DNA from: Naegleria gruberi
Lineage: Eukaryota
Reading direction: 5' to 3' (one strand)
Length of the DNA stretch: 64,000 nt
Assembly (NCBI GenBank): GCA_000004985.1
Contig: GG738922.1
This document shows positions 16,782-51,059 of the stretch, piece after piece (the stretch's first letter is position 1; each line of letters starts with the position of its first letter). Position numbers and translations under genes: made by a program. Under the pieces are notes generated by a model that was given only the letters and a program-made list of their open reading frames with translations, made no database searches and was not told where the DNA came from.

Positions 16782-16862
16782 GTTGAGGTGGCCGAGTGGT
16801 TAAGGCGCCAGCCTGCTAAGTTGGTGGAGTAATCCGCGTGGGTTCGAATCCCATCCTCAACG
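16782..16862 (+). tRNA. tRNA-Ser (anticodon GCT)
   Basis: GTTGAGGTGGCCGAGTGGTTAAGGCGCCAGCCTGCTAAGTTGG...GGTTCGAATCCCATCCTCAACG has a 7-bp acceptor stem, long variable arm, GCT anticodon loop and T-loop GGTTCGAATCC. Confidence 0.85.
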
Positions 16863-22829: not shown

Positions 22830-23002
22830 TTTTTTAATTAGTAATTTTACTGCAAATTTGAGACTTAACACTCGATAACTGAACCTTTAGTTTGGGTTTT
22901 TTGTACTTGTGGCACTAACAAGTTCAGCATTGACTGGTTTTGTTTTGCTTGAACTTAACATACATTAATTTATTAAGAACTAATAGAATTACTGAATAAG
23001 AT

Positions 23003-23075
23003 GCCGACATAGCTCAGTTGGGAGAGCGTAAGACTGAAGATCTTAAGGTCCCTGGTTCGATCCCTGGTGTCGGCA
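23003..23075 (+). tRNA. tRNA-Phe (anticodon GAA)
   Basis: GCCGACATAGCTCAGTTGGGAGAGCGTAAGACTGAAGATCTTAAGGTCCCTGGTTCGATCCCTGGTGTCGGCA, 73 nt, classic Phe cloverleaf. Confidence 0.9.
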
Positions 23076-23169
23076 AATTTTAGTGTCTTTGATAACAGGA
23101 TTCAATTTGCAATAAATCAAATCTGAAATGAAAAGTTGAATATTTATTAATTTTTAAAAAAATAGCACG

Positions 23170-27668: not shown

Positions 27669-27732
27669 TTTTTTAAAGATCAGATTTGTTCTGAAAATGC
27701 ACGAATAAAAATTTCATGGCTCGCCACGTTTA

Positions 27733-27803
27733 CCGTCTCGGGAGGAATCGAACCTCCGTCAATGGATTCAAAGTCCACTATGCTACCATTACACCACGAG
27801 ACG
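27733..27803 (-). tRNA. tRNA-Gln (anticodon TTG)
   Basis: Minus-strand CGTCTCGTGGTGTAATGGTAGCATAGTGGACTTTGAATCCATTGACGGAGGTTCGATTCCTCCCGAGACGG: perfect 7-bp acceptor stem, TTG anticodon loop CTTTGAA, T-loop TTCGATT. Confidence 0.8.
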
Positions 27804-27906
27804 AGCTCATTGATCTGAAATTGTATGTTATGAAAAATACTTTACCATAGCTGGAATAAAAATATATTTGTTTGTTTTCTCTTTTATCTTGTTTCAATAT
27901 GATTTG

Positions 27907-29729: not shown

Positions 29730-32700
29730 ATGTCAAACAAGTTTATAAGAGATTGGTTGGCTTGTGTGGTGATTCTATTCCTTCTTTGTTCTGTTTCAAA
29801 TGCTGGTAGCTTGGCAATTGTTTGTATTCCTGGCGAGTACATTAGTGGTAGTGCTTGTCTAGATTGTCCAGGAGGCACCTATTCAAGTGGCATGACGACA
29901 TCTTGCTCTGATTGTTCAGCTGGTTATTATTCTGAAGTAGGCTCAACAAGTTCTGACTGCTCTATATGTGCTGCTGGAACTTACTCAAATAATAGAGCCT
30001 CAAGTTGTACTAACTGTGCAGGTGGAACATATTCAGCTGGTGGAGCTTCGAGTTGTACCAGTTGCTCAGCAGGTTATTATTCAAGTGCTGGCTCGTCATC
30101 ATGTTATCAATGTGGAGCTGGAACTTATTCAACTGGTGGAGCTTCAAGTTGTACTAACTGTGCAGCTGGTTATTATTCATCGACTGTTGGAGCAACAAGT
30201 TCCTCAGTTTGTTTGATGTGCAGTGCAGGAACATATTCCACAATATCAGTTGCTGGTGGAGCTTCGAGTTGTACTAGTTGCTCAGCTGGTTACTATTCAA
30301 GTGCTGGAGCATCATCATGTTCTCAATGTGGAGCTGGTACTTATTCAGCTGTTAGCTCATCAAGTTGTACCAATTGTGCAGCTGGTTCATATTCAAGTGC
30401 TGGCTCATCCAGCTGTACTAGTTGTTCAGCTGGTTATCGTTCAAGTGCTGGGTCTTCTTCTTGCTCCCAATGTGGTGCTGGTACTTACTCAGCTGGTGGA
30501 GCTTCGAGTTGTACCAGTTGTTCAGCAGGTTATTATTCAAGTGCTGGCTCGTCATCATGTTCTCAATGTGGAGCTGGAACATACTCAGCTGGTGGAGCTT
30601 CAAGTTGCACTAATTGTGGAGCAGGTACTTATTCTTCGACAGTTGGAGGAACAAGCTCCTCAGTTTGCTTAAATTGTGTAGCTGGTACTTATTCCACAAT
30701 TTCAGGAGCAACTAGTGCCACAGTGTGTCAAAATTGTAATGCAGGAAGTTTTTCAACTGGTGGCTCATCCAGTTGTACCAATTGTGCAGCAGGTTATTAT
30801 TCAGCTTCAGGTTCCTCATCATGTTCTCAATGTGGAGCTGGAACATATTCAACTGGTGGTTCATCAAGTTGTGCAAGTTGTGCAGCTGGTTCATATTCAA
30901 GTGCTGGTTCTTCCAGCTGCACTAGTTGTTCAGCAGGTTACTATTCAAATCCTGGTTCGTCATCATGTTCCCAATGTGGAGCTGGTACTTATTCAAGTAC
31001 TGGCTCATCTAGTTGTACTAGTTGCTCAGCAGGTTATTATTCAAACTCAGGTTCTTCATCATGTTCTCAATGCGGAGCTGGAACATATTCGACTGGAGGG
31101 TCCTCAGGTTGTACCAGTTGCTCTGCAGGTTATTATTCAAGCGCTGGTTCTTCTTCTTGCTCTCAATGTGGAGCTGGTACTTATTCAACTGGTGGAGCTT
31201 CCAGCTGTACTAGTTGCTTAGCTGGTTATTATTCAAGTGCTGGCTCTTCCTCTTGCTCCCAATGTGGAGCTGGAACTTACTCAACTGGTGGCTCATCCAG
31301 TTGCACTAATTGTGGAGCAGGTACTTATTCATCAACACCTGGCGCCACAAACGCTGGAGTTTGCTTGACATGTTCTGCTGGTTACTATTCAAGCGTTGGT
31401 GCCTCGTCTTGCTCTAAATGTTCTGCTGGTACTTATTCAAGTAGTGGCTCATCAAGTTGTACTAATTGTGCAGCTGGATATTATTCAACCTCAGGTTCTT
31501 CATCATGTTCTCAATGTGGGGCAGGAACATATTCGACTGGAGGGTCCTCAAGTTGTACCAGTTGCTCAGCTGGTTATTATTCAAGTGCTGGCTCGTCATC
31601 ATGTTCTCAATGTGGAGCTGGTACTTATTCAAGTACTGGCTCATCTAGTTGTACTAGTTGCTCAGCAGGTTATTATTCAACTTCAGGTTCTTCATCATGT
31701 TCTCAATGCGGAGCTGGAACATATTCGACTGGAGGGTCCTCGAGTTGTACCATTTGCTCAGCTGGTTATCGTTCAAGTGCTGGGTCTTCTTCTTGCTCTC
31801 AATGTGGAGCTGGAACATTTTCGACTGGTGGCTCTTCAAGTTGTGCAAATTGTACAGCTGGTTCATATTCAAGTGTGGGCTCTTCCAACTGTACTAGCTG
31901 CTTAGCAGGTTATTATTCAAGCACTGGTTCGTCATCATGTTCTCAATGTGGAGCTGGTACTTATTCAACTAGTGCCTCATCAAACTGTTCCAGTTGTGGA
32001 GCTGGTTCATATTCGAGTGCTGGAGCATCATCATGTTCTCAATGTGGAGCTGGAACATACTCAGCTGGTGGAGCTTCAAGTTGCACTAATTGTGGAGCAG
32101 GTACTTATTCTTCGACAGTTGGAGGAACAAATTCCTCAGTTTGCTTGAATTGTGTAGCTGGTACTTATTCATTCGAGACAGGAGCTGCAAGTGCTAATGT
32201 TTGCCAAAGTTGTAGAGCTGGAACTTATTCGTCGATGGGCTCTTCTAATTGCACCAATTGCACACCTGGTTTCTATTCAACCACTGTAAATGCAACCAGT
32301 TCAGCTACCTGCATACCTTGTTCTGCAGGTACCTTTAGTAATTCAACTGGTGCATCTTATTGCTTTCAATGTCCTGAAGGTACTAACAGTGCTTCAGGAT
32401 CTTCTTTATGCAACTCATTTTCTTGTTTCCAATATAATAATTGCTCTGGAAACGGTGTTTGTGTTTCGAATAACACTTGCTCCTGTTTTGAAGGATTTGA
32501 CGGATTGAATTGCAATATCTCTCTACCGTTCTCGATTAATCTTAACTCCTCATATGTTACCTTATCCACTACAAAAATATTCACAGTACTAGTTGTTGGA
32601 AATTATTCAGATATTATCAGATATGATGTCTTTTGTATGAATTGTTCTTTTCTCAATTTCACAACATCGAATAATTTGATAACTATTGACATGACTGGAC

Positions 32701-35700
32701 AAAATATTGGAAAATTTACATTGATGGTTGTGGCTACAATGAATAATAGTAGAATATCAGCTCCTAGTTCTTTGATTGTAGAAATAGTTCCCCTTATCAA
32801 TCCACCAAGTACAGGGAAATTTGGATTTTTGAGCATTCCCAAGATTGTGGAGAGGAATAACCCAAAACTTGATGTCATCATCTCGAATTTAACAGATGTA
32901 GATGAATCCTTTGTTGGAAACTGTGGGTTGCAAACAATGTGTTCTTTTAAGTTGACAACTTATTTAGTGGAACAAACTGAAAGTTCCAGCTTGACCCTTT
33001 GGACTCAATCGCAAGTAGTTGTTGGATCCAACAAGTATACAACTATATTCTTTACTCCACTTGTTTCTTTAAATCCATCGCTTACCTTTACAACTGTAAA
33101 TTCTACAACATTACTTCTTTATATGACACTTGAGTCTTCAAATGGAAACAATAGTTATAGTACTGCCATTCCTATTGTTGATTCGGCATTTGCACCAACA
33201 AACATCAATTTCACTAGTATGCCTCAGTCAGGTCCAGCAATCCAACAGATTTTCTCAATTAGTTCGTCACCTTGGAATGCACCATTACAAATTCAACCTT
33301 TGTTCTATTCCTATGGTATCTACCTTAGTGATACACAACAATATATTCAACTTTCTCCATTCACTCAATCAACTCAAGCATACATTCCTTTACCCTATTT
33401 GTCAGATGGCCCAGTTTCGGTTGCCATTTTTGTTAAGAATTCTTTAGGAAATATAATATCAAAAGTTCTTGGGCAAGTAACAGTCATTAAGTCAATTGGA
33501 AATGTGGACTACTTGAATCTTACTGATACGCAATTAGCAGTATCAGTGTTTGATCAATCTAGTCAACTCACCACTTCAGATATTTCAACAATTATTAGAA
33601 GAATTGATATTGGCTCTAATCCGGACTCACCCTTACTTTATTTAAATACATTGGTACTCAATAATATCTTGGATGGTTCACAATTAGGTCTATTATCAAA
33701 CAAACTTTATCATTTCCTTAATAACTCTGCAGCTTCCTACGAACAAGAAATGGTAAACTTTGGATTTGTCAAGAGCAAACTCTCAGAAGAGGCCCTGAAT
33801 TCAACATTTTCTATTATTTCAACTATTATAAGCAACTCAACCTTTGATGGATTATTAACTTCATTCTCTCAACTTGTTATTCAAAGCTCAATTCCTAAAG
33901 TCGTCTCTGATTCAGATATGACTTTTATTTCATACTCTTCAAATTTTGCTAAAGCTTCACTTGTATCTTTTGTGTTGCCATCTACCAATTATGGATACAA
34001 TTCAAACAGTTATTTTGTCAGCCCCACAGGAATGAATTTTTCTGTAACCCTGAATTTTACAGAAATTACATCTATCGGAGAGGCCAACACCCACGGATTG
34101 TCCATAATAACATTTTCTAATAATTCTAAATTGGATAACTATTCTATCAGCAATCAAATGCTGTCTAATGTGGCAGATTTTAAATATTTCCTGAATAATT
34201 CTTATGTGAAATTGAGAAATCTTAACAATCCTATTATTCTGAAATTTGATGTACAATCTGAAGTAATTGGAAATATCTCAAATCCATCTCTGATATCTTG
34301 TATGTATTGGGATGAAACATTCTCAATTTGGAGCACTGAAGGCTGCACTCTGGTTGGCTGGTCTAACAGTTCTGTTTTCTGTGGTTGTAATCACACCACT
34401 TCATTTGCAACCTTTATTGATTACAACCTATCTTCCATTGCAACAATAGGGGAAAAGACACAAGTTTCTGGACTATTTATCGCACAAATATTTTTTGGTT
34501 GTTTATTTGCTGTCATTTCCTTTGTCATGTTAATTCTGTTAGTCATATTTAGAAAACATCAACCTGTTTCAAGTAGGTTAATAACTCCTTACATGGGGAT
34601 GATAGCACTACTTGTGGAATGTATCAGTATTTTCATTATTCAGAGAAGTGTACTTGTTGACTATTTATGGAATAATAACATTGATTGGAGTTCAGGAACT
34701 AATGCTCCAAATGTAATCGCCAATATTACATTGATAATTGTGAATAGCTTGAATATTACTGCAATATTTTGTTACGTTTGGCAAACCATCAGATATGAAG
34801 TAATGAAGTATTTGTATGATTTGATTTCCAAAAGAACTGACAATCACCCAACAGGAATGAAAGTATTAAGAAGATTTGTCTCACAAACTCTATTTATTTC
34901 ATTAACAGCTATATGTCTTACTCTAAATATTGCATATTGGCTATTGTGGGTTATCTTGAGAAGAACAGAAGCCATTTCAGCAACTGCCTTCACCCAAATT
35001 ACTTCAATCTCATACACTGTTATTATTTTCGTATTCAGTGCCATTATTTCAGTTACTACAATTGTAGATGTCATTGCAGCATTGATTGGACAGGATATTT
35101 ACTTCAAAAGAAAAGTGCATTCCAATAACAAAATATTGAAAGAAAGTACTTCCTCTTTGGAAATGCAACTCGCATTAGCTCCACATCCTAAAAACAAGTT
35201 TTTCCACACTGATGCTCCGCTCTATTTTAGAACTGAGATGATTGCTTATGTGATTTGTTTTGCATTAATGATCGTTCAACAAGTAACAGGTTTAAGTGTT
35301 TATTCCAACTCAGATGCAATTGTAAATATTGAAATTGTCAATTTGGTCTTTCAATTACTGTACTATATTTCATTCATTGGAGTGTTTGGAGGTTTTTCAT
35401 TGACAGTTTTGTTAATTTATAGAAAAAAATCAAAGAAATCATCCCACGATGCCTCTGAACTGAATGAAATTATCAATGAGGTTATTGGATTACAATTATT
35501 CGAAGTGTTTTGTGAATCAGAATTTTCCACTGAAAATCTTTACTTGTATCAATTACTGAAAGAAAATGAGAATATAAATTCAGAAGCAAATATCATGAAA
35601 TTATCAACTTTCGTAAGAACTATTTTCGAATTGTTCATTCAAAGAAATTCCAAGTACGAGGTTAACATTCCATCAAGTGTTTCAACAAATTTCAAACATT

Positions 35701-35927
35701 TGATAAACATATTAGAAAGTACAAACATTGAACTGCAACAAGATGAAACCAATTCACCTTTGAAACTAAAGTCAAAGGAGGTATTTAGTGACCTTTTGGA
35801 TCAAATTTTATTGAACTTGGAGGATACCTTTTCAAGGTTTGTAACATTGGACGTTTATGAAAGATACAAAGAAAAGAAAGATTGGAAGACAAACATGTTA
35901 GCACAATCAAATATAAGCGTTCAATAA
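29730..35927 (+). CDS. Giant adhesion-GPCR-like receptor: signal peptide, about 45 ephrin-receptor-like (GCC2/GCC3-type) Cys-rich modules, EGF module, GAIN/GPS, 7TM, C-terminal RGS domain
   Basis: Signal peptide 'VVILFLLCSVSNA'. Modules 'C..C.AG.YS..G.SSC' span about nt 29830-32420. EGF 'CSGNGVCVSNNTCSCFEGFDGLNC'. GPS 'CMYWDETFSIWSTEGC...CGCNHTTSFATF' lies at about 34300-34420. Seven TM helices span about 34470-35425. RGS box 'LFEVFCESEFSTENLYLYQLL...KYEVNIPSSV' lies at about 35495-35720. Confidence 0.8.
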   Translation: MSNKFIRDWLACVVILFLLCSVSNAGSLAIVCIPGEYISGSACLDCPGGTYSSGMTTSCSDCSAGYYSEVGSTSSDCSICAAGTYSNNRASSCTNCAGGTYSAGGASSCTSCSAGYYSSAGSSSCYQCGAGTYSTGGASSCTNCAAGYYSSTVGATSSSVCLMCSAGTYSTISVAGGASSCTSCSAGYYSSAGASSCSQCGAGTYSAVSSSSCTNCAAGSYSSAGSSSCTSCSAGYRSSAGSSSCSQCGAGTYSAGGASSCTSCSAGYYSSAGSSSCSQCGAGTYSAGGASSCTNCGAGTYSSTVGGTSSSVCLNCVAGTYSTISGATSATVCQNCNAGSFSTGGSSSCTNCAAGYYSASGSSSCSQCGAGTYSTGGSSSCASCAAGSYSSAGSSSCTSCSAGYYSNPGSSSCSQCGAGTYSSTGSSSCTSCSAGYYSNSGSSSCSQCGAGTYSTGGSSGCTSCSAGYYSSAGSSSCSQCGAGTYSTGGASSCTSCLAGYYSSAGSSSCSQCGAGTYSTGGSSSCTNCGAGTYSSTPGATNAGVCLTCSAGYYSSVGASSCSKCSAGTYSSSGSSSCTNCAAGYYSTSGSSSCSQCGAGTYSTGGSSSCTSCSAGYYSSAGSSSCSQCGAGTYSSTGSSSCTSCSAGYYSTSGSSSCSQCGAGTYSTGGSSSCTICSAGYRSSAGSSSCSQCGAGTFSTGGSSSCANCTAGSYSSVGSSNCTSCLAGYYSSTGSSSCSQCGAGTYSTSASSNCSSCGAGSYSSAGASSCSQCGAGTYSAGGASSCTNCGAGTYSSTVGGTNSSVCLNCVAGTYSFETGAASANVCQSCRAGTYSSMGSSNCTNCTPGFYSTTVNATSSATCIPCSAGTFSNSTGASYCFQCPEGTNSASGSSLCNSFSCFQYNNCSGNGVCVSNNTCSCFEGFDGLNCNISLPFSINLNSSYVTLSTTKIFTVLVVGNYSDIIRYDVFCMNCSFLNFTTSNNLITIDMTGQNIGKFTLMVVATMNNSRISAPSSLIVEIVPLINPPSTGKFGFLSIPKIVERNNPKLDVIISNLTDVDESFVGNCGLQTMCSFKLTTYLVEQTESSSLTLWTQSQVVVGSNKYTTIFFTPLVSLNPSLTFTTVNSTTLLLYMTLESSNGNNSYSTAIPIVDSAFAPTNINFTSMPQSGPAIQQIFSISSSPWNAPLQIQPLFYSYGIYLSDTQQYIQLSPFTQSTQAYIPLPYLSDGPVSVAIFVKNSLGNIISKVLGQVTVIKSIGNVDYLNLTDTQLAVSVFDQSSQLTTSDISTIIRRIDIGSNPDSPLLYLNTLVLNNILDGSQLGLLSNKLYHFLNNSAASYEQEMVNFGFVKSKLSEEALNSTFSIISTIISNSTFDGLLTSFSQLVIQSSIPKVVSDSDMTFISYSSNFAKASLVSFVLPSTNYGYNSNSYFVSPTGMNFSVTLNFTEITSIGEANTHGLSIITFSNNSKLDNYSISNQMLSNVADFKYFLNNSYVKLRNLNNPIILKFDVQSEVIGNISNPSLISCMYWDETFSIWSTEGCTLVGWSNSSVFCGCNHTTSFATFIDYNLSSIATIGEKTQVSGLFIAQIFFGCLFAVISFVMLILLVIFRKHQPVSSRLITPYMGMIALLVECISIFIIQRSVLVDYLWNNNIDWSSGTNAPNVIANITLIIVNSLNITAIFCYVWQTIRYEVMKYLYDLISKRTDNHPTGMKVLRRFVSQTLFISLTAICLTLNIAYWLLWVILRRTEAISATAFTQITSISYTVIIFVFSAIISVTTIVDVIAALIGQDIYFKRKVHSNNKILKESTSSLEMQLALAPHPKNKFFHTDAPLYFRTEMIAYVICFALMIVQQVTGLSVYSNSDAIVNIEIVNLVFQLLYYISFIGVFGGFSLTVLLIYRKKSKKSSHDASELNEIINEVIGLQLFEVFCESEFSTENLYLYQLLKENENINSEANIMKLSTFVRTIFELFIQRNSKYEVNIPSSVSTNFKHLINILESTNIELQQDETNSPLKLKSKEVFSDLLDQILLNLEDTFSRFVTLDVYERYKEKKDWKTNMLAQSNISVQ
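29830..32330 (+). repeat. Coding tandem repeat array (about 75/150-nt units, many copies over 90 percent identical) encoding ephrin-receptor-like Cys modules
   Basis: Sequence blocks such as 'tgctcagcaggttattattcaagtgctggctcgtcatcatgttctcaatgtggagctggaac' recur directly. The periodicity also creates the shadow ORFs seen in other frames. Confidence 0.85.
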
Positions 35928-39476: not shown

Positions 39477-41066
39477 ATGTTTCCACTCATAAAAAGCCTT
39501 TCCGATATTCAAGCTTGTTTTTCTTCGGCAATTAACCAACAAGAAGATGTCCATCATCTTCATACAAAATCAAACTCTATTATCGGAGGCTTTTCTAACA
39601 ATAATTTAATGGATCAATTCAAGATTGAACGTGATGGTGGTTACATCTTTATCAAATATAAACATGCTATATCGATGAAAGATACTTTTCCTGATCCGAA
39701 TGATGAATTTCTATCTGCAGAGGAACGTTTGAATTATCAACTCAGAAGGGAATGTAGAGGAATTGTATTTCGGAATGATCAAGATGATGATGAAGTAAAT
39801 ATTCAGCAGGAAAATATACAAAATGATGAAAAGAAGGTGAAAGGAAGAATCATTTCGAGAAAGTTTCACAAGTTTTTCAATATTAATGAGAGGGAGGAGA
39901 GTAATGTGGAGAGTATAAATTGGAGAAGAGGTTTTATTGTGATGGAAAAGATGGATGGATCATTGGTTTCGCCACTGAGGATTATTCGAAACGATGATTT
40001 GAATGATGGGATAGAAGATTCGAATAGAGTGTGGACATTTACTTCAATGTTGGGATTTACAGAAACTGGACAAGCTGTGGATGAGTTCATCTATCAAGAA
40101 ATGGAGGGAAGAAAGAGAGACAAATTATTCGAATTGTGTGAATATTGTGAAGAGAGTGGAATAACTCCATTATTTGAATTTTGTTCAAAGGAAAACAAGG
40201 TTGTTATTGAACATGAAAAGACAAGTTTAATCCTTTTGGCATTTAGAAATATAGAATCTGGAGAATATATGTCCTTCAAAGATACTGTTAACACTCTCAA
40301 CAAGTTCAATAACCCGGTTCCTATTGTAAAACTGTGGAAGGAATATCCTAATGGATTGAAAGGAGTAGAGGATGCAAACAAGCTCTTGAAGGAAATTTAT
40401 GCCCAAAAGAATGTTGAAGGATATGTCATTAGATTTTATGAAGGTGACATGTATAAGGTAAAGACCACATGGTACACAAGCTTGCATGGATTGGAAACTA
40501 CAGGAAAGTTTATTAGAGATCGACACGTTATTAAGGGAATTTTGGAGAATAATGTTGATGATATCATTTCTAGTTCCTTCTTTAACGGAGAGGAAAAGAA
40601 GAGGAAAGCTCTTCAATTATTCAGAGATGAAGTTGAAAGAAGGATACTCCTTAAAATTGCTGAAACCACAAAGGAATTGAAGGAGAAATCAATTGATGAC
40701 ATTTCACCAGATTCAATCACTGGTAAATTTTACTATTATCTCACTTCAGAGCATCCACAAGAAGCTATCAACAATTCAGATCTCATAACATCCGTATACT
40801 ATTCATTCCTCATTGAATATTTTAAGCTTAATGGAAGAGAATTCGATAGACACCGAAAATTATTCTACAAGTATCTCTCTATTGATTTCTCAGTCATGAA
40901 ACCTTACCATTTCACACATGAAGGAATTTTATCAGAACCAAGCAGCAGCAGCACTCCACCTAAAAAACAAGCACAACCACCAAGATATGCCGCTTCCAAA
41001 AACGATTCCACAAACCAATCATCAAACTCTGCAAAACCATCAGTTGACAAGAAGAAACGCAAGTAA
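39477..41066 (+). CDS. ATP-dependent RNA ligase-like protein (T4 Rnl1 / Trl1 ligase-domain type nucleotidyltransferase) with basic C-terminal tail
   Basis: Motif I 'EKMDGSLVS' (KxDG, about 39947-39970; compare T4 Rnl1 KEDGSLVS). Motif IV 'EGYVIRF' (about 40426). Motif V 'YKVKTTW' (KxK). The order and spacing match the covalent nucleotidyltransferase fold. Confidence 0.6.
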   Translation: MFPLIKSLSDIQACFSSAINQQEDVHHLHTKSNSIIGGFSNNNLMDQFKIERDGGYIFIKYKHAISMKDTFPDPNDEFLSAEERLNYQLRRECRGIVFRNDQDDDEVNIQQENIQNDEKKVKGRIISRKFHKFFNINEREESNVESINWRRGFIVMEKMDGSLVSPLRIIRNDDLNDGIEDSNRVWTFTSMLGFTETGQAVDEFIYQEMEGRKRDKLFELCEYCEESGITPLFEFCSKENKVVIEHEKTSLILLAFRNIESGEYMSFKDTVNTLNKFNNPVPIVKLWKEYPNGLKGVEDANKLLKEIYAQKNVEGYVIRFYEGDMYKVKTTWYTSLHGLETTGKFIRDRHVIKGILENNVDDIISSSFFNGEEKKRKALQLFRDEVERRILLKIAETTKELKEKSIDDISPDSITGKFYYYLTSEHPQEAINNSDLITSVYYSFLIEYFKLNGREFDRHRKLFYKYLSIDFSVMKPYHFTHEGILSEPSSSSTPPKKQAQPPRYAASKNDSTNQSSNSAKPSVDKKKRK

Positions 41067-41097: not shown

Positions 41098-41952
41098 ATG
41101 CACCATCACAAACCACTGTTCCCACTCGAAAACCTTCCCTCACAAGTTGTATCACACTTCCTGATGAATAATAAAAAGTTACAAGAGGAGAGAATCGAGT
41201 GGATAGAATCAGAGACGAGAAAAATTGATGAATTTACAGAAAAAATTACAAAACACACTTTACTTATCCCGACTACGAATGGTGATGATCAAAAAGCACA
41301 AGAAAAGATTATTAAATTAAATGTTGGTGGAAGTGTTTTCACTACCAATTTGAAAACATTGCTGAATGAAAAGGATACATTCTTTAGTGGATTTTTTAGT
41401 GATCGATTCTTACCACAAATACAAAAGGTGGAAAGTGAAAGTGGAGTAGAGGATGTCTATTTCATTGACAGGAATGGAAAGAATTTTTCATTAATTTTGG
41501 ATCATTTGCGAGGACATAAAATTGGACCAAAGATTCAAAATTTGACTGGAATTGAATTATTTGAATTTGTGGAAGATGTTGCTTTCTATCAAGTTCGCTC
41601 TATTTATCCTTTATTGAATGATGAATCTAAGGAAATGTTAAGGGAACATTTTTCAATTGAGTTGGAGGAAGCACCTAAAGTGAAAGAAACAATACCAATT
41701 GCAAATAATAGACTAAAGCTTACATCACATGCTTTAGCGAATATTCCTCAAGAGTATAAGAGAATGGTGTTGGGCGAAACTTTACATCCTTTTGTTCTCG
41801 AATTGGAACCTACAAACGCCGGCAAGATTACAGGAATGCTTCTAGAAATGGAAACAAACATGATCTTGAATTGGATTGAGAATGATGATGAATTGAAGAA
41901 GATTGTTGAACAAGCAGTTACAGTTTTAAAAGGGAGTTCTTTATATAATTAA
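41098..41952 (+). CDS. BTB/POZ (T1/KCTD-type) domain fused to PABC/MLLE domain
   Basis: BTB 'IIKLNVGGSVFTTNLKTLLN...VYFIDRNGKNFSLILDHLRGHKI' lies at about 41305-41640. MLLE 'LGETLHPFVLELEPTNAGKITGMLLEMETNMILNWIENDDELKKIVEQAVTVLK' lies at about 41740-41940. Confidence 0.75.
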   Translation: MHHHKPLFPLENLPSQVVSHFLMNNKKLQEERIEWIESETRKIDEFTEKITKHTLLIPTTNGDDQKAQEKIIKLNVGGSVFTTNLKTLLNEKDTFFSGFFSDRFLPQIQKVESESGVEDVYFIDRNGKNFSLILDHLRGHKIGPKIQNLTGIELFEFVEDVAFYQVRSIYPLLNDESKEMLREHFSIELEEAPKVKETIPIANNRLKLTSHALANIPQEYKRMVLGETLHPFVLELEPTNAGKITGMLLEMETNMILNWIENDDELKKIVEQAVTVLKGSSLYN

Positions 41953-41978: not shown

Positions 41979-44900
41979 TTATTTTTTATCATAAACTTGC
42001 ACAAACTCAGTCTTACTTCTTCCAAAGCATTCAGGAGAATACATTTCTTCCATATAGGTTGAAGGTGCTACAAACGAACCTAAAGTAGTAGCTCTGCAAA
42101 TATAGCTGTAAACATGTGTGCCTTCATATAAAATTCTTGCAAATGCTTCAACTCTTTCATCTCTAATATTTTGATTTTCGAACCATTTGAAATAATGGTT
42201 ATTTGCCAATTCATTTTCGTTACCCCCATTTCCAAAATTAGTGAGCTGTGTATCGATTTCTGGATTGACAACTTCTAAACCTGCTGGCAGTTTATCAACA
42301 AGAGCAACATTATATCTTCTAGTAGGATTACATATTGTAATATTAACTCTGACCAATTCGCCTGACTTCACCTTCCATGTCTTGGTATTCTTATCAAACT
42401 TGACATCGTCAGGATTGGTGATTGCTTCATATACTCTAGAAATTGAGAATCCTCTATCTAAAGATTTGAGAGTAAATTCTTGAGGAGTGTAAGATAGAGC
42501 AATTCTATAATAAAGTCTTCCAGTACCATTCTTTGTCAAGAGGAATGATTTCTTTGAGTCATTTTCATCTGGATTGATGACTTCCTTATTAATATCAGCT
42601 CTTGGAACAAAAGCAGTTACCGGTAATGATGTAATCTTCTTTTCTCTACTTCTTCCTTTCCAAGATTGATTGCCCATAAAGAAAGTCTCCTCTGGCCTTG
42701 TAGAATCAACAAGCCATGTATTAACATTCATATCTGGAACTTCCTTCTCGAATATCTTGAAATAATCGGTGAGGGAAATGAGACAGATAGAGTTTTCTTG
42801 AGTATTATACCAACGACCATATCTATTTGCATTTCTGGCAGCCAACAGGCTTCTTACCAATTTTTGGATAATATCACTACTATCTTCTCTATCAATTTCC
42901 ATTAAACATCCCAAAACAACAGCATCAGTTCTTGTATTTGAATGCAGCATGACCATTTGTGCAAGTTCATTATCTTCATATCTAGTGATAAAGTGTGCAT
43001 AGATACCAGAGTCAATTGTGACATTTTCCTTAAAGTATGACTTGATGGCTTCCAACCATTGATAAACTGAAATCTTTTCATTGATGAATTTTGCAAAGAA
43101 ACCCTTCTTCTCTTCAACTTGTTCCTTCTTACATCTGTGAATAGACATTGCAAGATAAGCAGCAGATTCTGGATTCAATTCTTGAGTCAACTCTGTTAGG
43201 GTATTGTAGTGGTCAAGAATACCTTCACACAAGGAAATTACCTGTTCCTTGTCAGTTTCACTATCAGCTAACAATGAGAGAATATAAAAAGCGTATGCTT
43301 TGATAGTGTCTTTAACAGATCTTGGCCAAATAAATCCAAAGAAGAATAAACTTGAAATATTCTTCAAAATGGATTTTGTTCTGGACAGTATTTGATCTGG
43401 AATTTTGTATCCTTCAGATTTACATTTGGCAAAACAAAAAGCAACATGGCATGTCAAGAATGGATCTCCAATCAAATTATTACTCCAATAAGAGAAGGCA
43501 CCATCATATCTTTGACGCTCAAATAATCTGGCAAGATTGGTATCAATGAAAGTGTCAATCTCTTCTCTTCCAGAAATGTCCATCAATTTTTTGAGTTCCT
43601 CAGGTGTGTAGAATTGCAAAATCATTTCCTTCATGGAAACAATACCTAAAAGCTTTGAGGCAATTTGTTCATTACATTCATATGGATATGAGTAGAGATA
43701 AATGAGAGAATCAGTCAATGTTGAAAGGGCTGTTGTGGAGGTACTAACACTAAATTCACCGAAATGAGCCAAGATATTCTTTGATGGAAGTGAAATTGGT
43801 TGTAATACATTATCATTAGTTTCACTAACATCTCCATAAGTTGCAAAAGCCTCATTAGTTGCTGGAGTGAAAATTTTAAAGTCATTCTTTACAGCATCAG
43901 ACCATCCAACCATTTCGTCAGCAATGCCTTGTTTTTCAGGATTCTTAGCAACAGCTCTAACTACTCTAACTCCAATATTGATAAGAGCCTTACCACATTT
44001 GAGAACTTGAACTGGAATTCTAACTTCTTTTCTTCCTTGAGCTGGAATAACCACTGAAAATCCCTTCTTTCGTTGATTCTTGTTCTTTCCATTGAAAATT
44101 CTGAGATTTGTTACTTGGCAAACGAGTGATAGTGTCAAATCTGAATCTGTTTGATTTTGTAGAATATATGTCAAATCACACAAATCGCCATAATTCAAAA
44201 ATCTTGGAAGGGATGGTCTTACGGCAATAGGTAAATTGGTTGTAATTGCAGAACTACCAATACCAATTAAATCTTCTTTGGCATTCACTACAGCAGTTAC
44301 TTTGAATTTGGTGAGTGCATCAGTCAATTTGAAATCAAGTGTTATAGATCCATTTTCATCCGTTTGAGCGAATCCAATAAATGCAGCATCTGGTTTGAAA
44401 TTATTTCTTATTTGGAATACATCTTTTCTGTCATTCATTGATGGCATTGCACAACCACGACAACCACCACATATAGCACTGCTACTACTGCTACAAGTAC
44501 ATTCACATTCATTACAACTATGTTTTCTACAACAAGAAAACGAAGGAAGGAATAAACAAGCTGCCTTCTTATGAAATCTGACGCTTTGACAAGACATGTC
44601 ACAACATTGATTTTCCAAATCATCTAAAACTTGAATTTGTCGCCCGGACCCGTCATACCCTGCCCTATTTGATAATCTGAGTGATGTTTGAGTTTGCTCC
44701 ATGATTTCTGCATCTCGTTGGTTCTTTCTAGGGTAAAGCCAGTATCTCACGCTCTCCCTGATTGAATCACAATTGAAACTGCACGAATTATTAATTACAA
44801 ATAATGAGAGCGGGTCTTCAATCGAATGATTTGCCATATCCAATACAGCTTGATCACAAACAATCAAACAAACCTCAGAATTTGGTACAGTATTTCCTTG

Positions 44901-47900
44901 CTTATCTTTCACAAGAACAGTGACTGATGTCTCTTTTCCAGGGCTAAGTATAGTATCCTTTGGAGTGACAGTAACATCAAGCTCGTGGGAGCTCTTAGAA
45001 ATTTGAATATCAATAGATCCAGAAGCCTGAGTTGGATTAACTCTTGTCATGTCATCAATATCAACATAGTTCTCCTTACCAACCAATTGTACCTTAACTT
45101 GTATATTTGGTCTATATTCCTTCTTGATTGGAATTGTCAACTCGTACATTCCTACATCACTACTAATATCAAATGTTTCCTGTTTGATTAGCCTATTACA
45201 TAAAATCCAAGCGACTCCTGTACAATCACCACTAAAAGGAGAGACAATATAGACTTTGGCATCCTCTCCAGGTTGGTATTCATCATTTTCAAATTTGTTG
45301 GTAATTAGTTCGATACCAGATGTATTCAGAGATGCATAACCCTTTGATGTTAAATGTTCCCTATAGCCCAATTTACGAATAGGAATACTGCATCTGTTAA
45401 TACCTGATCTGTGCTTTGGTGTTTCATCTTCTTTTACTTCGCACAAAATGGCATACTCTCCATAAGCAGTGTCCTTGTTTTCCTCACTAAGCTTAAATGT
45501 ATGTAAAAGTGGTTGATCTTGTGAAGTGAGTTTGATTTCCTTGATTGGATTTGTGGTTTCCCATTTTTCATAACCCTTCGAATCGTAACCAAACTGAACT
45601 AATTTTACAGATATTGGAACGTCCTTCACCACCTTACCCTTGATATCTGTAACAACAAAGAAACAGTCGATATTTTCATCAGATTTCATAACTACTCTTT
45701 TAGTGCAACGAACTCCAATGTAATATTTGCAAGAGTGGAGAATAACCTCACTAGATGTTCTTTGTGTTTGTCTATTGATGTCCTGAACATTGGCATTGCA
45801 ACTGACACTAATAGGACTAGTTACCAACTTTTCTGGATCCCATAATATTATTGACAGATGATCATCACCATTGGAATCAGTTGTCCCATTAATATTACTG
45901 TAAAGTCTGGTTTTTGATTTTACACTATTTAAAAGTCTATCCAGTTTGTAATTATTTCTAAGATCTGTTTCTTGGAAAATGTAATTACTCCATCCTTCTG
46001 GGGTGAAATTTTTAGAAGTGGTATTGAGAGAATAGTTCACAGTTGAATTAGAGAGGCCTCCTCCACTATAATATTTGGCACTGACCTTATTGATGAACTT
46101 TTCACCAACAAACAAATCAACCTTTTCTGATGAAGGAATAATACTGCTACTGACAGTATATTCTCTAGTTCTAAACTCTTCAACTTTAAAAGTATGATTC
46201 CAGCATACTGTTTGCTGGAATCGTTGACCGTCAAAACTAAATGTGACTGAGTGAGAACCTAAATTAACATTATCTGGTATAACCAAATCCAAAACAAAAG
46301 ATCCATTCGCACTCAATTCAACTTTACCATCCAAGTATTTAACTCTGCTATTGTCGAAAACTTCATAAGTTACCTCTTTCTTACTTATTTGAGTGGTGAT
46401 TGCATAGGTACCATAATTCTCAGAATCCTTGTTAGTGTCGTATATCAAGTTTCTGATGAAACCCTTAATATGTACAGTTTCATTTGGCTTGTATAACCCA
46501 CGATCATTAAAAATGTGAGCAATATTAGTGTCTTGACGAGTTGAGTGAACATAAACGCTTGGATTAGTGTAGACAACTTGATCTGTGTCTTTAGATACAG
46601 CAATGGAAACGTGATGATAACCCTGTATGCATGTAAAATAGGCCATACCCCTTTCATTTGTTTTTTCAGTAACTGATCTAACGTCCATTGTTCTAGTCTC
46701 CTTATCAGGATAATAGTTCTTGGTGTCAAACATTGTTACTTCAGCATTGTCAACAGGTTTTCCCGTTGAGAAATCAGTTACAAATACACCTAATTTTTCT
46801 CCAGCGATACTCACAACATCGACACACAAATTTGAAACTTGCACCCATCTAGCTTGATATCCAGAAAATAATGAGTATAAAATTGATCTTTTTGGTTTGA
46901 AATGTACCAATACACTGCCTGTTTTTCCATTTTGAAGAAATTCTGGCAACATAATCTTGGTAGAAACAGTTCTGTCCTTTACAAAGTTTTCAGTTTGTAC
47001 TTTTTGATCAAAAACTTGCTTTCCAAAACTATGAGGTTTTCTTGGGTTCCAATCAAAATGTGCATAATTATCATAGGAATTAAAGAATGTTTTTGGAGCA
47101 AACTTTGGGTATACACATTCTTTGTACATTTCTATAGGATCAACTTGATTGATAATAACATGAGTTTCTTGAATATTTACAGAATCAAAGTAAAGAAATG
47201 GTTCATTGTTATCAAAAAGGCATGGTGGCATGACACTAAAGGTAGGGAGTGTCATGTTGAATTCCCTATCCTCACCTGAGACTTCGAAAGTGGCTGAATA
47301 ATCACTTTCCATGATTTGGTTATAAATATCTGGAACTCCTTTTAAAATTTTAACACTATATTTCTCCCTAGCGAGAGTATCACCTGCGATTATAATAGTA
47401 TTACCATCAGCTTTTACCTTGTAATTATTAAGGACTGGTTCAAGTTGAACAAATTTTTCAATGCTGTCTACCTTTTCCAAATCAATAGGATTGTTGAATC
47501 TGAATGTAAATGAGCAACCTGGATAAATTTCATTAAAGAAAAAATGTTTCTTTGGATAATGATCAGAAACTACCATTTTGGAATAGCCACGCACACCAGT
47601 GGATGTTTCATGAGTAGATACAAGTGGACCTTCCAAACTCTTGAATCCTGGTCTCAACCAAACACTCAAATATTCTCCTAATCCAATTTTACGATAATTC
47701 TTTCCAGCATGTAAAGTATCGTTTGCAACAAGTAACTTGATCCACATACATCTCTTTGGATCATGAACATTTTTGAGACTTCTGTAATACAAGTTATAAA
47801 CATATGGGAACTTTTTGGAATAATCTGTTTCTGCCAACATTTTGGAAATTATTGAGGTGTCTTCCAATAATTCCACACCAATTTTGTAGCTAGAAACTTT

Positions 47901-48800
47901 CATTTCCAACTTTTCTAAAACACTTTGCTTGTCAATATCTTGATCAAATTGGAAGAACATGAATGGGAGTTGAGAAATTGGAAAGCTGTTACCTGAAGGG
48001 ATACAACTGAGAATTCTAGCTGTTGGTGTCTTAAACGTTGCTGATAAATCATCTCCTAAAGTATGTCCATGCACGGACTTGGTCTTTTCTTTTATAACCT
48101 TGTAGGAAAACTCGGTTGATCTGTCAAATCTGAATCGAGGTTGAAACACTAAAGATTTAGTACCAATCCATTTCCACTTTCCTTCTTTAACATTTTCTGT
48201 TACTGGACTAATTTCAATAAAATCAATCTCTTCAAATGATTTAGTTTCTCCATCAAATTCTTCAATCATGTCATGACTAAATGTAATGGAAATGAATGGC
48301 ACAGATGCAACTTCTGAATTTTGTTTACCAGTTGGCACTGCTCTAACAATTCTAAACTTCTCTTCCTTCTTCTTTTCCAAAGCATTTTGAGCAAGTTGAT
48401 TTCCGATACTATTCACCATTTCATCAACTGCATTCACAGATTTTGGAGGAAATTCAATTTGATTTTTGACTTGGAAAGTACCAGGTTCTGGTGGTTTGAG
48501 AGTTTGTTCTCTGATCAGGTAATTTTCTTGAAGAGATTGTTCTTGATCCTGTTGATCCTTCATCAATTCTCCCAACAAGTTTTCCAAACTCTCCTCATCT
48601 AAATCTTCAATTTTAAATACTGAATCATCAATTATTTTGTTTTCTAGAGAGGCTTGTTCATCATGATCGGATGCAAATTGTTGATCATCATTCTCTCGGA
48701 TCAGAGCAGATACAACATCCTTGCTGTCTCCCTTCTTTACATGGAGAACCAATTGTTGATAATCGAGCAATTCGCTATCAATTTCTTCTTCAATCTTCAT
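41979..48800 (-). CDS. Alpha-2-macroglobulin / thioester-containing protein family member, 2273 aa, acidic N-terminal extension
   Basis: 'LIYLYSYPYECNEQIASKLLG' (about 43655-43690) corresponds to the A2M thioester segment 'PYGCGEQ' and the bacterial 'YPYGCLEQ'. The overall length and beta-rich N-terminal two-thirds fit the family. A Cys-rich bait-like insertion lies at about 44430-44640. Confidence 0.7.
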   Translation of the reverse strand: MKIEEEIDSELLDYQQLVLHVKKGDSKDVVSALIRENDDQQFASDHDEQASLENKIIDDSVFKIEDLDEESLENLLGELMKDQQDQEQSLQENYLIREQTLKPPEPGTFQVKNQIEFPPKSVNAVDEMVNSIGNQLAQNALEKKKEEKFRIVRAVPTGKQNSEVASVPFISITFSHDMIEEFDGETKSFEEIDFIEISPVTENVKEGKWKWIGTKSLVFQPRFRFDRSTEFSYKVIKEKTKSVHGHTLGDDLSATFKTPTARILSCIPSGNSFPISQLPFMFFQFDQDIDKQSVLEKLEMKVSSYKIGVELLEDTSIISKMLAETDYSKKFPYVYNLYYRSLKNVHDPKRCMWIKLLVANDTLHAGKNYRKIGLGEYLSVWLRPGFKSLEGPLVSTHETSTGVRGYSKMVVSDHYPKKHFFFNEIYPGCSFTFRFNNPIDLEKVDSIEKFVQLEPVLNNYKVKADGNTIIIAGDTLAREKYSVKILKGVPDIYNQIMESDYSATFEVSGEDREFNMTLPTFSVMPPCLFDNNEPFLYFDSVNIQETHVIINQVDPIEMYKECVYPKFAPKTFFNSYDNYAHFDWNPRKPHSFGKQVFDQKVQTENFVKDRTVSTKIMLPEFLQNGKTGSVLVHFKPKRSILYSLFSGYQARWVQVSNLCVDVVSIAGEKLGVFVTDFSTGKPVDNAEVTMFDTKNYYPDKETRTMDVRSVTEKTNERGMAYFTCIQGYHHVSIAVSKDTDQVVYTNPSVYVHSTRQDTNIAHIFNDRGLYKPNETVHIKGFIRNLIYDTNKDSENYGTYAITTQISKKEVTYEVFDNSRVKYLDGKVELSANGSFVLDLVIPDNVNLGSHSVTFSFDGQRFQQTVCWNHTFKVEEFRTREYTVSSSIIPSSEKVDLFVGEKFINKVSAKYYSGGGLSNSTVNYSLNTTSKNFTPEGWSNYIFQETDLRNNYKLDRLLNSVKSKTRLYSNINGTTDSNGDDHLSIILWDPEKLVTSPISVSCNANVQDINRQTQRTSSEVILHSCKYYIGVRCTKRVVMKSDENIDCFFVVTDIKGKVVKDVPISVKLVQFGYDSKGYEKWETTNPIKEIKLTSQDQPLLHTFKLSEENKDTAYGEYAILCEVKEDETPKHRSGINRCSIPIRKLGYREHLTSKGYASLNTSGIELITNKFENDEYQPGEDAKVYIVSPFSGDCTGVAWILCNRLIKQETFDISSDVGMYELTIPIKKEYRPNIQVKVQLVGKENYVDIDDMTRVNPTQASGSIDIQISKSSHELDVTVTPKDTILSPGKETSVTVLVKDKQGNTVPNSEVCLIVCDQAVLDMANHSIEDPLSLFVINNSCSFNCDSIRESVRYWLYPRKNQRDAEIMEQTQTSLRLSNRAGYDGSGRQIQVLDDLENQCCDMSCQSVRFHKKAACLFLPSFSCCRKHSCNECECTCSSSSSAICGGCRGCAMPSMNDRKDVFQIRNNFKPDAAFIGFAQTDENGSITLDFKLTDALTKFKVTAVVNAKEDLIGIGSSAITTNLPIAVRPSLPRFLNYGDLCDLTYILQNQTDSDLTLSLVCQVTNLRIFNGKNKNQRKKGFSVVIPAQGRKEVRIPVQVLKCGKALINIGVRVVRAVAKNPEKQGIADEMVGWSDAVKNDFKIFTPATNEAFATYGDVSETNDNVLQPISLPSKNILAHFGEFSVSTSTTALSTLTDSLIYLYSYPYECNEQIASKLLGIVSMKEMILQFYTPEELKKLMDISGREEIDTFIDTNLARLFERQRYDGAFSYWSNNLIGDPFLTCHVAFCFAKCKSEGYKIPDQILSRTKSILKNISSLFFFGFIWPRSVKDTIKAYAFYILSLLADSETDKEQVISLCEGILDHYNTLTELTQELNPESAAYLAMSIHRCKKEQVEEKKGFFAKFINEKISVYQWLEAIKSYFKENVTIDSGIYAHFITRYEDNELAQMVMLHSNTRTDAVVLGCLMEIDREDSSDIIQKLVRSLLAARNANRYGRWYNTQENSICLISLTDYFKIFEKEVPDMNVNTWLVDSTRPEETFFMGNQSWKGRSREKKITSLPVTAFVPRADINKEVINPDENDSKKSFLLTKNGTGRLYYRIALSYTPQEFTLKSLDRGFSISRVYEAITNPDDVKFDKNTKTWKVKSGELVRVNITICNPTRRYNVALVDKLPAGLEVVNPEIDTQLTNFGNGGNENELANNHYFKWFENQNIRDERVEAFARILYEGTHVYSYICRATTLGSFVAPSTYMEEMYSPECFGRSKTEFVQVYDKK

Positions 48801-49202: not shown

Positions 49203-49283
49203 TGCAGAAGGTGGGATTTGAACCCACGAAGCTTGCACAGTAGAACTTGAGTCTACCCCCTTTGACCACTCGGGAACCCCTGC
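49203..49283 (-). tRNA. tRNA-Leu (anticodon CAA)
   Basis: Minus-strand GCAGGGGTTCCCGAGTGGTCAAAGGGGGTAGACTCAAGTTCTACTGTGCAAGCTTCGTGGGTTCAAATCCCACCTTCTGCA: long variable arm, CAA anticodon loop CTCAAGT, T-loop TTCAAAT. Confidence 0.8.
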
Positions 49284-49398: not shown

Positions 49399-51059
49399 TT
49401 ATTTGAAACACTTGTTGACAATATTCATAAAGAATCCACCAACTGGAAGAATATAACGAGTAATAATATTATCACCAAGGGTGGTGAGCAAGAGATTTCT
49501 CTTAGTATCAGAGAATGGTGGATATCTGAGATCCAAATCAAGCCAGTACTTCTTCTTCAAGACAGACTTTTGGTGAGTGAAAGTATTGAAAGAGGCATCA
49601 CCATGATAAGCTCCCATACCACTGTGTCCAACACCACCAAATGGAAGATGTTCTTCACCAACTTGGAGAACACATTCATTGATACCAACAGCACCAGATT
49701 GAGTAACCTTCATGATTCTTTCAACCAATTGTTGATTCTTTGAATAAATATACAATGCCAATGGCTTAGATCTTTGATTAATGAATTTCAAACCAGCATC
49801 AAGATCTTTCAAAACGCTTGGATATTCAGTTGATTTAGATTCTCCATAAATAATGATTGGCAAAAGAGGTCCGAAAAGTTCTTCTTGCATGACAATATCA
49901 TTTTCCATATCAGGATTGAGGATCAAGGTTGGTTGTACGTACTTGGCTGATTCATCTGCATTACCACCATAGATAACCTTATCCTTGACTTGATCAATAA
50001 TTGCCTTAAGACGTTTTACATGTGTACCTGTGACAATTCTGGAATAGTCTGGAGATTTGGATGGATCTTCACCATACATTTTAGTGATGGCTTCCTTGAG
50101 GGCTGGAATGAATTTGTCAGCAATTCTACCATCCAACAAGACATAATCTGGAGCAACACAAGTTTGTCCATTATTGAATGTCTTACCCCAGGCAATTCTG
50201 TTGGCAGCAACTGAAATATCAATATCCTTGTCAATAATGAGTGGTGATTTACCTCCAAGTTCTATTAAATATTATCCACAATTCCAATAATTTAAATCAT
50301 TTGTTATTGAAATTTGCATTATGTGTGATAGTTCATTAATATCAACTTTGATCAACTAAACTTACCCAAAGTTACAGGAGTCAAATGTTCAGCAGCAGCA
50401 CGCATAACAATCTTTCCGACTCTAATGCTGCCAGTGTAGAAAATGTGATCATATGGTTCCTTCAACAAGTTGGTTGTCACAGTTGCATCACCTTCAATGA
50501 CACGAACATATTTCTCATCAAAATATTTAGGAATTAGTTTAGCAAAGGTAGAGGAAACATTTGGAGAAACTTCGGAAGGTTTCAAAATAACCAAATTACC
50601 AGCTGCCAAAGCACCAGAAAGTGGAATAGCCAACAAACTGATTGGATAATTCCATGGAGCAATAATCAGAACAACACCCAAAGGTTCCTTTCTAATAAAG
50701 CCTTCTGAAGGAAGATTGGCAGGATTGACAATATTAACATATTCATCCTTCATCAATCTCTTCAAATCACCCTTCAAGAATTGAGCAGATCCCACAGACA
50801 AACCAACTTCAATGGTTTTTAATGGTTCTGTTTGTCCCAAATCCTTGACTTGAGCTTCCTTCCAATCCTCCTTATTTTCCTCGAACATGGCAATAAACTT
50901 GTCCAATTGTTCTTCTCTCCATTCACGATCTCTAGTGATACCAGTTTGAAAAGTAGCCTTCATTGATTCAACCAATTCGGCATATGGTCTATCACTCTTA
51001 TCATCAACAATAACATTGTTTTGTTCCTTGTTTTGAAACACTGCAGATCCTCCGATCAT
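49399..51059 (-). CDS. Aldehyde dehydrogenase, ALDH3 / fatty-aldehyde dehydrogenase type, 2 exons: join(complement 50366..51059, 49399..50260)
   Basis: Exon 1 ends 'AAAEHLTPVTL' and exon 2 begins 'ELGGKSPLIIDKD...NGQTCVAPDY', rebuilding the invariant 'PVTLELGGKSP'. The 105-nt intron 50261..50365 runs GTAAGTTTAG...TTTAATAG in phase 1. Downstream 'EELFGPLLPI' and 'PFGGVGHSGMGAYHG' match ALDH3A2. Confidence 0.85.

Follow-up and report, generated by a model that had tools for sequence, protein, structure and literature searches.

Thioester-containing proteins (TEPs) are central to the innate immunity of animals, as complement, insect TEPs and alpha-2-macroglobulin (A2M), and to envelope defence in bacteria, and they are generally regarded as extracellular or periplasmic. 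What, then, is encoded by a very long open reading frame (ORF) of the amoeba Naegleria gruberi whose translation contains the thioester-like motif YPYECNEQ, and where did it come from? The ORF lies at 41979-48800 in a 64,000-nucleotide stretch of contig GG738922.1 (the window, in what follows), and the original prediction for it was of a giant A2M/TEP-family protein that could be either a protease trap or opsonin-like factor outside animals or a bacterial-type A2M acquired horizontally. Judged by its sequence and predicted fold, the product, NAEGRDRAFT_59848, is a full-length bacterial-type alpha-2-macroglobulin (COG2373) of the subfamily of about 2000 amino acids (aa) that carries a Big_5 domain. 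Taken as a whole, the data are best explained by a bacterial-derived A2M that is encoded by a nuclear gene of Naegleria and most likely acts as a covalent protease trap, an explanation in which we have good confidence. The locus is a well-supported case of gene transfer in a known family with two peculiarities, an export signal that has been lost and a bait loop rich in cysteines, both of which diverge from the family and had been overlooked by the original prediction.

Domain architecture and bacterial kinship

The translation of the ORF is identical (100%, same length) to the deposited protein NAEGRDRAFT_59848, which UniRef labels automatically as 'Alpha-2-macroglobulin domain-containing protein'. 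We scanned this protein against Pfam at E<=0.1, compared it by phmmer with all chains of the PDB, modelled it with AlphaFold2 (AF2) and searched the PDB with the models using Foldseek. The order of domains that emerges is Big_5, macroglobulin (MG) domains, a bait-region domain (BRD), the bait itself, an equivalent of MG8, the thioester domain (TED) and bMG10 (Table 1), and the Pfam matches to MG2, A2M_BRD, A2M and bMG10 bear out the proposed membership of the A2M/TEP superfamily. Big_5 is a hallmark of the bacterial subfamily and is also recorded in the bacterial relatives, bMG3 is present as a weak Pfam match, and an NCBIfam scan matched no family. By phmmer, the BRD aligns with residues 751-913 of Salmonella A2M, in a region where the AF2 model is confident; bMG10 aligns with residues 1517-1635, including M1625/Y1626. 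An AF2 model of aa 1470-2273, built with homologues as the alignment, reached a predicted local distance difference test score (pLDDT) of 86.8 and a predicted template modelling score (pTM) of 0.71, and shows a helical domain flanked by beta-sandwiches. The TED helices lie at residues 224-548 of this fragment, mostly with pLDDT >85, and the MG8 equivalent is a confident beta-sandwich both here and in a second AF2 model that spans the BRD-bait region.

Table 1. Coordinates in the window of the macroglobulin gene and of the features of its product.
Feature	Residues (aa)	Position	Strand	Basis
Complete single-exon gene, 2273 codons + stop		41979..48800	-	ORF list and translation
Acidic polar N-terminus without signal peptide	1-100	48501..48800	-	Hydrophobicity, alignment
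Big_5 bacterial Ig-like domain	430-505	47286..47513	-	Pfam PF13205, E 1.9e-07
MG2 macroglobulin domain	761-862	46215..46520	-	Pfam PF01835, E 1.4e-13
A2M bait-region domain (BRD)	1170-1322	44835..45293	-	Pfam PF07703, E 2.5e-17
Hypervariable bait segment, between invariant R1348 and R1465	1349-1465	44406..44756	-	Alignment
Cysteine cluster in bait, 13 Cys/52 residues	1399-1450	44451..44606	-	Cys positions
A2M family domain (MG8 equivalent)	1474-1558	44127..44381	-	Pfam PF00207, E 3.6e-10
Thioester domain (TED), predicted all-helical alpha/alpha toroid	~1693-2017	42750..43724	-	AF2, Foldseek, phmmer
YPYECNEQ; predicted thioester Cys1709 + Gln1712, shielding Tyr1705 + Tyr1707	1705-1712	43665..43688	-	Alignment
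bMG10 (CTMG) domain	2117-2257	42030..42452	-	Pfam PF17973, E 2.1e-28, full model 1-131

The searches against known structures favour bacterial proteins throughout. The phmmer matches in the PDB are bacterial alpha-2-macroglobulins only (Salmonella 4u48 and E. coli YfhM/ECAM 5a42, 4ziq and 4rtd; E 6e-20 to 1e-17), and the best Foldseek matches of the aa 1470-2273 model are 4u48, 4ziu, 4u4j, 5a42 and 4ziq (E 1e-36 to 1e-34), with animal A2M, CD109, C3/C5 and TEP1 ranking below them. These animal matches (E 1e-32 to 1e-27), together with the presence of the thioester Cys and Gln, are what would speak for a vertically inherited, animal-type TEP, CD109 or complement-like opsonin, and hence for a thioester immunity that predates animals. 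The animal matches are expected because the whole superfamily, including A2ML1 and complement C4, shares one fold. Animal thioester proteins share the Cys...Gln thioester chemistry and are activated by proteolysis of an exposed loop, but they carry GCGEQ, where the Naegleria protein has ECNEQ, measure about 1450-1650 aa, and end in a receptor-binding or C345C domain instead of bMG10; neither the A2M receptor-binding domain (PF07677) nor C345C was matched at E<=0.1. They are also secreted glycoproteins with conserved disulfides, whereas the Naegleria protein has neither a signal peptide nor such a framework. Identity between the Naegleria model and animal structures is just 9-14%, compared with 27-36% for full-length bacterial relatives, and the protein groups with bacterial proteins. 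An animal-type origin is therefore extremely improbable in our estimation, and the suggestion of an animal-type opsonin falls with it. That the protein is far longer than animal A2Ms was correctly seen; within its own subfamily its length is unexceptional, since the bacterial relatives measure 1900-2200 aa.

The same picture comes from the wider set of relatives. An exhaustive phmmer search with the TED-MG10 part returned 10183 relatives at E<=1e-3, of which we examined the best 150; no animal or other opisthokont sequence is among these 150. The top relatives are heterolobosean paralogues, namely FDP41_007782 of N. fowleri, C9374_013396 and C9374_010557 of N. lovaniensis and a Percolomonas cosmopolitus transcript, and Willaertia magna has four copies (ABK040_003915, ABK040_013894, ABK040_000474 and ABK040_000516). 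N. gruberi has two CNEQ copies that are 74% identical, and N. fowleri has two close relatives of NAEGRDRAFT_59848, one of them with CNEQ. The nearest relatives outside amoebae are all bacterial (Pyrinomonadaceae, Blastocatellia, Chloroflexota, Armatimonadota and others), 27-36% identical and collinear over 93-100% of the length. The bacterial subfamily belongs mostly to Acidobacteriota and Chloroflexota, is common in soil Acidobacteriota, and shares with the Naegleria protein the Pfam set of Big_5, MG2, A2M_BRD, A2M and bMG10. Its members are variously labelled by their sources as 'alpha-2-macroglobulin family protein', 'Ig-like domain-containing protein' or 'YfaS', and the 'YfaS' that JGI gives is a generic COG name. 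Beside the genes of two close bacterial relatives we found neither a pbpC-like gene nor partners of a YfaS operon, and these neighbourhoods thus offer no functional clue.

In neighbour-joining trees, the heteroloboseans are monophyletic in 100/100 bootstraps (5 sequences), and the clade with all paralogues and two to four metagenomic sequences is recovered in 99-100/100, or in 92/100 after Dayhoff-6 recoding. A wider clade that adds Amoebozoa (Sappinia pedata, Dracoamoeba jomungandri, which is the MMETSP0439 transcriptome labelled 'Stereomyxa' by its source, and a further EukProt transcriptome) falls from 93/100 with amino-acid distances to 59/100 after the same recoding, and we regard the union of Heterolobosea and Amoebozoa as tentative for this reason. 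The eukaryotic clade is nested within the spread of bacterial sequences; P0040, P0042 and bacterial groups that are more distant branch off outside it. Together with bMG10 and the bacterial best matches in sequence and fold, a heterolobosean clade whose outside relatives are only bacterial upholds the part of the original prediction that proposed horizontal acquisition, and the simplest reading of the sequences would be one old transfer from a bacterium to an amoeba followed by duplications. The locus shows that bacterivorous amoebae have stably kept and duplicated a bacterial-type thioester macroglobulin, with the reactive site conserved and the export signal lost in all eukaryotic copies. 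One further protein from this part of the tree deserves mention: two metagenome contigs of 7.4-8 kb from independent samples (L004 and L005) encode a Cys-rich macroglobulin (P0075) with no signal peptide and the motif YKFSCNEQ, which groups with heterolobosean paralogue group B (96/100) and therefore probably comes from an uncultured heterolobosean.

A family that is overwhelmingly bacterial and a gene without an intron could also point to a bacterial contaminant or an assembly chimera. The gene, however, sits among eukaryotic genes on one deposited contig of 210 kb. In the window, its neighbours on both sides are eukaryotic (PWI, Sof1/WD40, actin-fragmin kinase, RGS-containing receptors, BTB-MLLE and an aldehyde dehydrogenase with an intron), in agreement with the protist host that had been assumed. 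Its GC content resembles that of host genes, and at third codon positions (GC3) it stands at 0.274, compared with 0.21-0.32 in neighbouring host genes. Four further heteroloboseans, each sequenced independently, have copies as well (N. fowleri, N. lovaniensis, Willaertia magna and, as a transcriptome, Percolomonas). The Naegleria protein also has 4-10 times as much Cys as its bacterial relatives and has lost the signal peptide. The eukaryotic neighbours and the host-like GC3 lead us to dismiss contamination, to which we give next to no credence; the GC3 value further indicates that the transfer is old.

We found a single precedent for an amoeboid protist with a bacterial macroglobulin of COG2373 type: DdiCPRas2 of Dictyostelium (Elias & Novotny 2008, PMC2430557), which is COG2373/A2M-like and has a circularly permuted RAS domain inserted into it. 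This GTPase insertion is absent from NAEGRDRAFT_59848, and DdiCPRas2 was not among the close relatives retrieved by the homology searches. In the literature on macroglobulins, COG2373, protist thioester proteins and Naegleria gene transfer, we found no publication describing the Naegleria proteins; with NAEGRDRAFT_59848, which automatic annotation had already flagged as A2M-like, the known family gains a new, uncharacterised member.

The thioester site and its pocket

The placement of YPYECNEQ in the thioester loop is confirmed by the alignment with solved structures. By phmmer, 'lysYPYeCNEQiaS' falls column for column, and far beyond chance, on 'lkaYPYgCLEQttS' of the Salmonella (4u48) and E. 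coli (5a42/4ziq) proteins (whole-sequence E 6e-20 to 7e-18), with YPYECNEQ lying exactly on YPYGCLEQ. In a 13-sequence alignment C1709, E1711 and Q1712 are invariant, and the Cys and Gln of a thioester are retained as had been proposed. The description of the motif as non-canonical holds only relative to animals. We took a census of 167 non-heterolobosean relatives carrying CxEQ, in which the thioester Cys follows Glu in 88 cases, Gly in 41 and Asp in 13; the x of CxEQ varies freely and is taken by S (77), A (35), V (17), T (15) or N (14). E-C-x-E-Q is the consensus of the donor subfamily (YP[YF]ECxEQ, with YPYECSEQ as the consensus of the closest bacterial proteins), and bacteria have CNEQ itself too. 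Among heteroloboseans, CNEQ is the form in the two N. gruberi copies and in FDP41_007782, the orthologue in N. fowleri; other paralogues have CTEQ, CSEQ, CCEQ or CAEQ.

In ECAM, the thioester is kept buried by two tyrosines before the Cys and by two motifs, RDDR and ExMY, in the MG domain at the C-terminus (PMC4498604). All of these shielding residues are kept in the Naegleria protein: Y1705 and Y1707, and within bMG10 the pocket-capping motifs RDER (aa 2213-2216) and EEMY (aa 2251-2254), in which the 13-sequence alignment shows no variation at R2213, R2216, E2251, E2252, M2253 and Y2254. The likeness to ECAM/YfhM (5a42, 4ziq, 4rtd) and Salmonella SaA2M (4u48) extends to the whole plan, with an MG array, a BRD and disordered bait, a helical TED and bMG10, and to a thioester in the same column (CLEQ there, CNEQ here) with Tyr-x-Tyr, RDDR-like and ExMY motifs in common. 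The differences are also clear. At about 17-18% identity to the solved structures, the Naegleria protein is about 620 residues longer, owing to an extra Big_5-containing N-terminal region that is common to the bacterial subfamily of about 2000 aa; it has Glu instead of Gly before the Cys, a cysteine-rich bait, neither signal peptide nor lipobox, and a eukaryotic host.

With Y-x-Y, RDER and EEMY all in place in the thioester pocket, the most likely mechanism is a covalent trap triggered by proteases. By analogy with ECAM and Salmonella A2M, the trap would be used once: a thioester between Cys1709 and Gln1712 would form on folding and lie buried between TED and MG10, cleavage of the bait loop or another perturbation would free MG10 and expose the thioester, and the carbonyl of Gln1712 would then be covalently joined to a nucleophile on the attacking protease.

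Alternatively, CxEQ could be a relic in a protein that acts non-covalently, like the thioester-less bacterial macroglobulins of YfaS/MagD type. CxEQ is absent from 29 of about 196 relatives, and the loss is tolerated among eukaryotic copies as well, to judge by one Willaertia paralogue (P0071, ABK040_013894, with YESNEH) and the Sappinia pedata protein (P0165); metagenomic P0215 and P0184 have likewise lost the thioester Cys and/or Gln. The YfaS/MagD type lacks CxEQ, however, and NAEGRDRAFT_59848 has CNEQ, which recurs unchanged in the second N. gruberi copy and in the orthologue of N. fowleri. At 35-50% identity, 11 of the 12 heterolobosean proteins keep CxEQ with its Cys, Glu and Gln, the two shielding aromatics and EEMY/RDER, and RDER-like and ExMY motifs are found in all 12, P0071 included. 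The conservation of the site in spite of such divergence argues for purifying selection on it, and we consider the relic very unlikely. Willaertia magna has thioester-bearing and thioester-less paralogues in one species, as bacteria have YfhM and YfaS types.

N-terminus, bait loop and cellular location

The first of the two features that set the Naegleria protein apart concerns its beginning. In most bacterial relatives the sequence opens with a signal peptide or lipobox. As a measure we took the most hydrophobic 15-residue stretch (Kyte-Doolittle) within the first 70 aa, which scores 0.35 in NAEGRDRAFT_59848 and >2 in most bacterial relatives; the N-terminal segment is not hydrophobic, and the search for a signal peptide ended negatively. 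The same is true of all 12 heterolobosean proteins and of the Amoebozoa transcripts (0.2-1.2), transcript-derived ORFs included, none of which has a signal peptide. The N-terminus is indeed acidic, as had been noted (29 D+E and 9 K+R in the first 100 aa), but it is not a novel extension: the alignment matches it with the beginning of the mature bacterial protein, as a homologous linker with lineage-specific insertions and no new domain. We considered a missed upstream exon encoding a signal peptide and rejected it as unlikely. An in-frame TAA lies immediately upstream of the ATG, and the gap of about 400 nt between the ATG and a tRNA-Leu gene (49203-49283), which holds just one 15-codon ORF (MIFVSLEVFDIIYRW*), leaves little room for an unannotated 5' exon. 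Judging by the missing signal alone, NAEGRDRAFT_59848 is probably not exported by the classical route, and with all eukaryotic copies alike in this respect the cytosol, or the cytosolic face of a membrane, is the probable place of its synthesis and a possible place of its action. Loss of the signal peptide in all eukaryotic copies is new with respect to the known family.

The second feature is the bait loop. The bait segment sits between the BRD and the A2M (MG8) domain and is 116 aa long, compared with 27-130 in bacteria; the equivalent segment of ECAM contains the disordered bait Arg923-Leu942 (PMC4498604). In the Naegleria protein, aa 1387-1470 are modelled by AF2 as coil with pLDDT <50 and predicted to be disordered, between two confident domains. 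Within this loop lies the cysteine cluster (CCDMSC...C...CC...C..C.C.C...C..C..C). Bait cysteines number 11-17 in six Naegleria paralogues, 15 in EukProt P0224 and 19 in metagenomic P0189, and none of the 35 bacterial baits has any. In total, the Naegleria proteins have 47-58 Cys and several lineage-specific insertions, whereas the bacterial subfamily has 4-10 Cys. Besides the thioester Cys and C1024, no Cys is common to different paralogue groups, which indicates that there is no conserved disulfide framework. The cysteine-string-like cluster of the Naegleria copies is new with respect to the known family, and it may serve for membrane anchoring by S-acylation, for the sensing of redox state or metals or, should the protein be secreted after all, for disulfides. 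The Cys-rich inserts of three paralogues, scanned alone against Pfam at E<=10, gave no match.

These two features invite readings that go beyond a conventional trap. The thioester could be kept without a protease-trapping function, in a cytosolic or membrane-anchored sensor whose Cys-rich bait answers oxidation, metals or S-acylation, or in a tagging factor whose thioester marks non-protease targets, as in C3 and TEP1. This would fit the lack of a signal peptide in the eukaryotic copies, the cysteine-string-like clusters found in eukaryotic baits only (11-19 Cys, vs 0/35 bacterial baits), the lack of a conserved disulfide framework and the occurrence of thioester-less paralogues beside thioester-bearing ones. 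All elements of a protease trap are conserved, however, and the bait has remained a long disordered loop that proteases can reach. Moreover, the insert matches no known metal-binding or acylation domain, and the cluster is absent or small in the baits of Willaertia, Percolomonas, Sappinia and Dracoamoeba, and hence not essential to the eukaryotic clade. We therefore regard a sensor or tagging factor as unlikely. A broader proposal, which we put forward as possible but doubtful, is that free-living amoebae (Heterolobosea and possibly Amoebozoa, with Sappinia and Dracoamoeba) hold intracellular thioester macroglobulins as a cell-autonomous defence of bacterial origin. The protein would then be cytosolic, in Naegleria tethered or regulated through the cysteine-string-like bait (by S-acylation, or redox or metal sensing), and would bind proteases covalently or mark invaders, for instance Legionella-like bacteria or giant viruses.

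Returning to the bacterial-derived protease trap, several points weigh against it or against its placement in the cytosol. The domain search by which the original prediction was to be checked returned A2M-family domains, but neither the receptor-binding domain nor the Pfam TED model PF07678 (TED_complement), the latter with no match at E<=0.1, and the TED assignment accordingly rests on the PDB alignment and the predicted fold. All trees are neighbour-joining trees, and the branching order of the eukaryotic clade relative to the bacterial groups has a bootstrap of 31-49%, at which no donor lineage can be named. The members of the eukaryotic clade that lack the Cys or Gln imply that the scaffold can persist without a thioester, and for NAEGRDRAFT_59848 itself the formation of the bond is a prediction. 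Finally, a cytosolic location would be unusual for the superfamily and is read from one thing, a signal that was not recognised; a missed 5' exon or unconventional secretion may undercut it. If the proteins are active, protists would have thioester-based capture in a simple and genetically independent form, with consequences for how amoebae, among them the pathogen N. fowleri, deal with foreign proteases or their own. If they also act in the cytosol, the known compartments for thioester chemistry would be widened.

Other genes of the window

Within the macroglobulin gene, a 125-aa ORF on the opposite strand (46902-47279) was treated as a chance ORF. The nearest neighbour downstream of the macroglobulin stop is a 284-aa ORF (41098-41952, +) with an unusual pairing of BTB_2, of the potassium-channel tetramerisation type, and a C-terminal MLLE/PABC domain; the two genes are convergent, their stops 26 nt apart. 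Next to it, a 529-aa ORF (39477-41066, +) has a T4 Rnl1-type RNA ligase domain (PF09511, E 2.2e-32), which is known best from phages and bacteria, and may be another candidate for transfer into the Naegleria genome. On the other side, two ORFs on the minus strand (49399-50139 and 50352-51059) match positions 279-461 (C-terminal) and 29-234 (N-terminal) of the aldehyde dehydrogenase profile; as parts of one profile, they are predicted to belong to one gene that is interrupted by an intron of about 212 nt. Four tRNA genes lie between protein genes: Leu-CAA on the minus strand, already mentioned, Ser-GCT (16782-16862, +), Phe-GAA (23002-23076, +) and Gln-TTG (27732-27804, -).

Two further ORFs of the window have the look of receptors. 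The first, of 2065 aa (29730-35927, +), combines eight Ephrin_rec_like repeats, an NCD3G domain (the cysteine-rich domain of family-3 G-protein-coupled receptors) and a C-terminal RGS domain, and its Cys/Gly-rich repeats cause the only GC spike of the window (0.447 at 30-32 kb; GC content at second codon positions 0.55). The second (1-5457, +) runs off the start of the window and has teneurin-type EGF repeats and a weak RGS match (E 4e-4, below the Pfam cut-off); possibly it too encodes a large receptor-like protein that carries an RGS domain.

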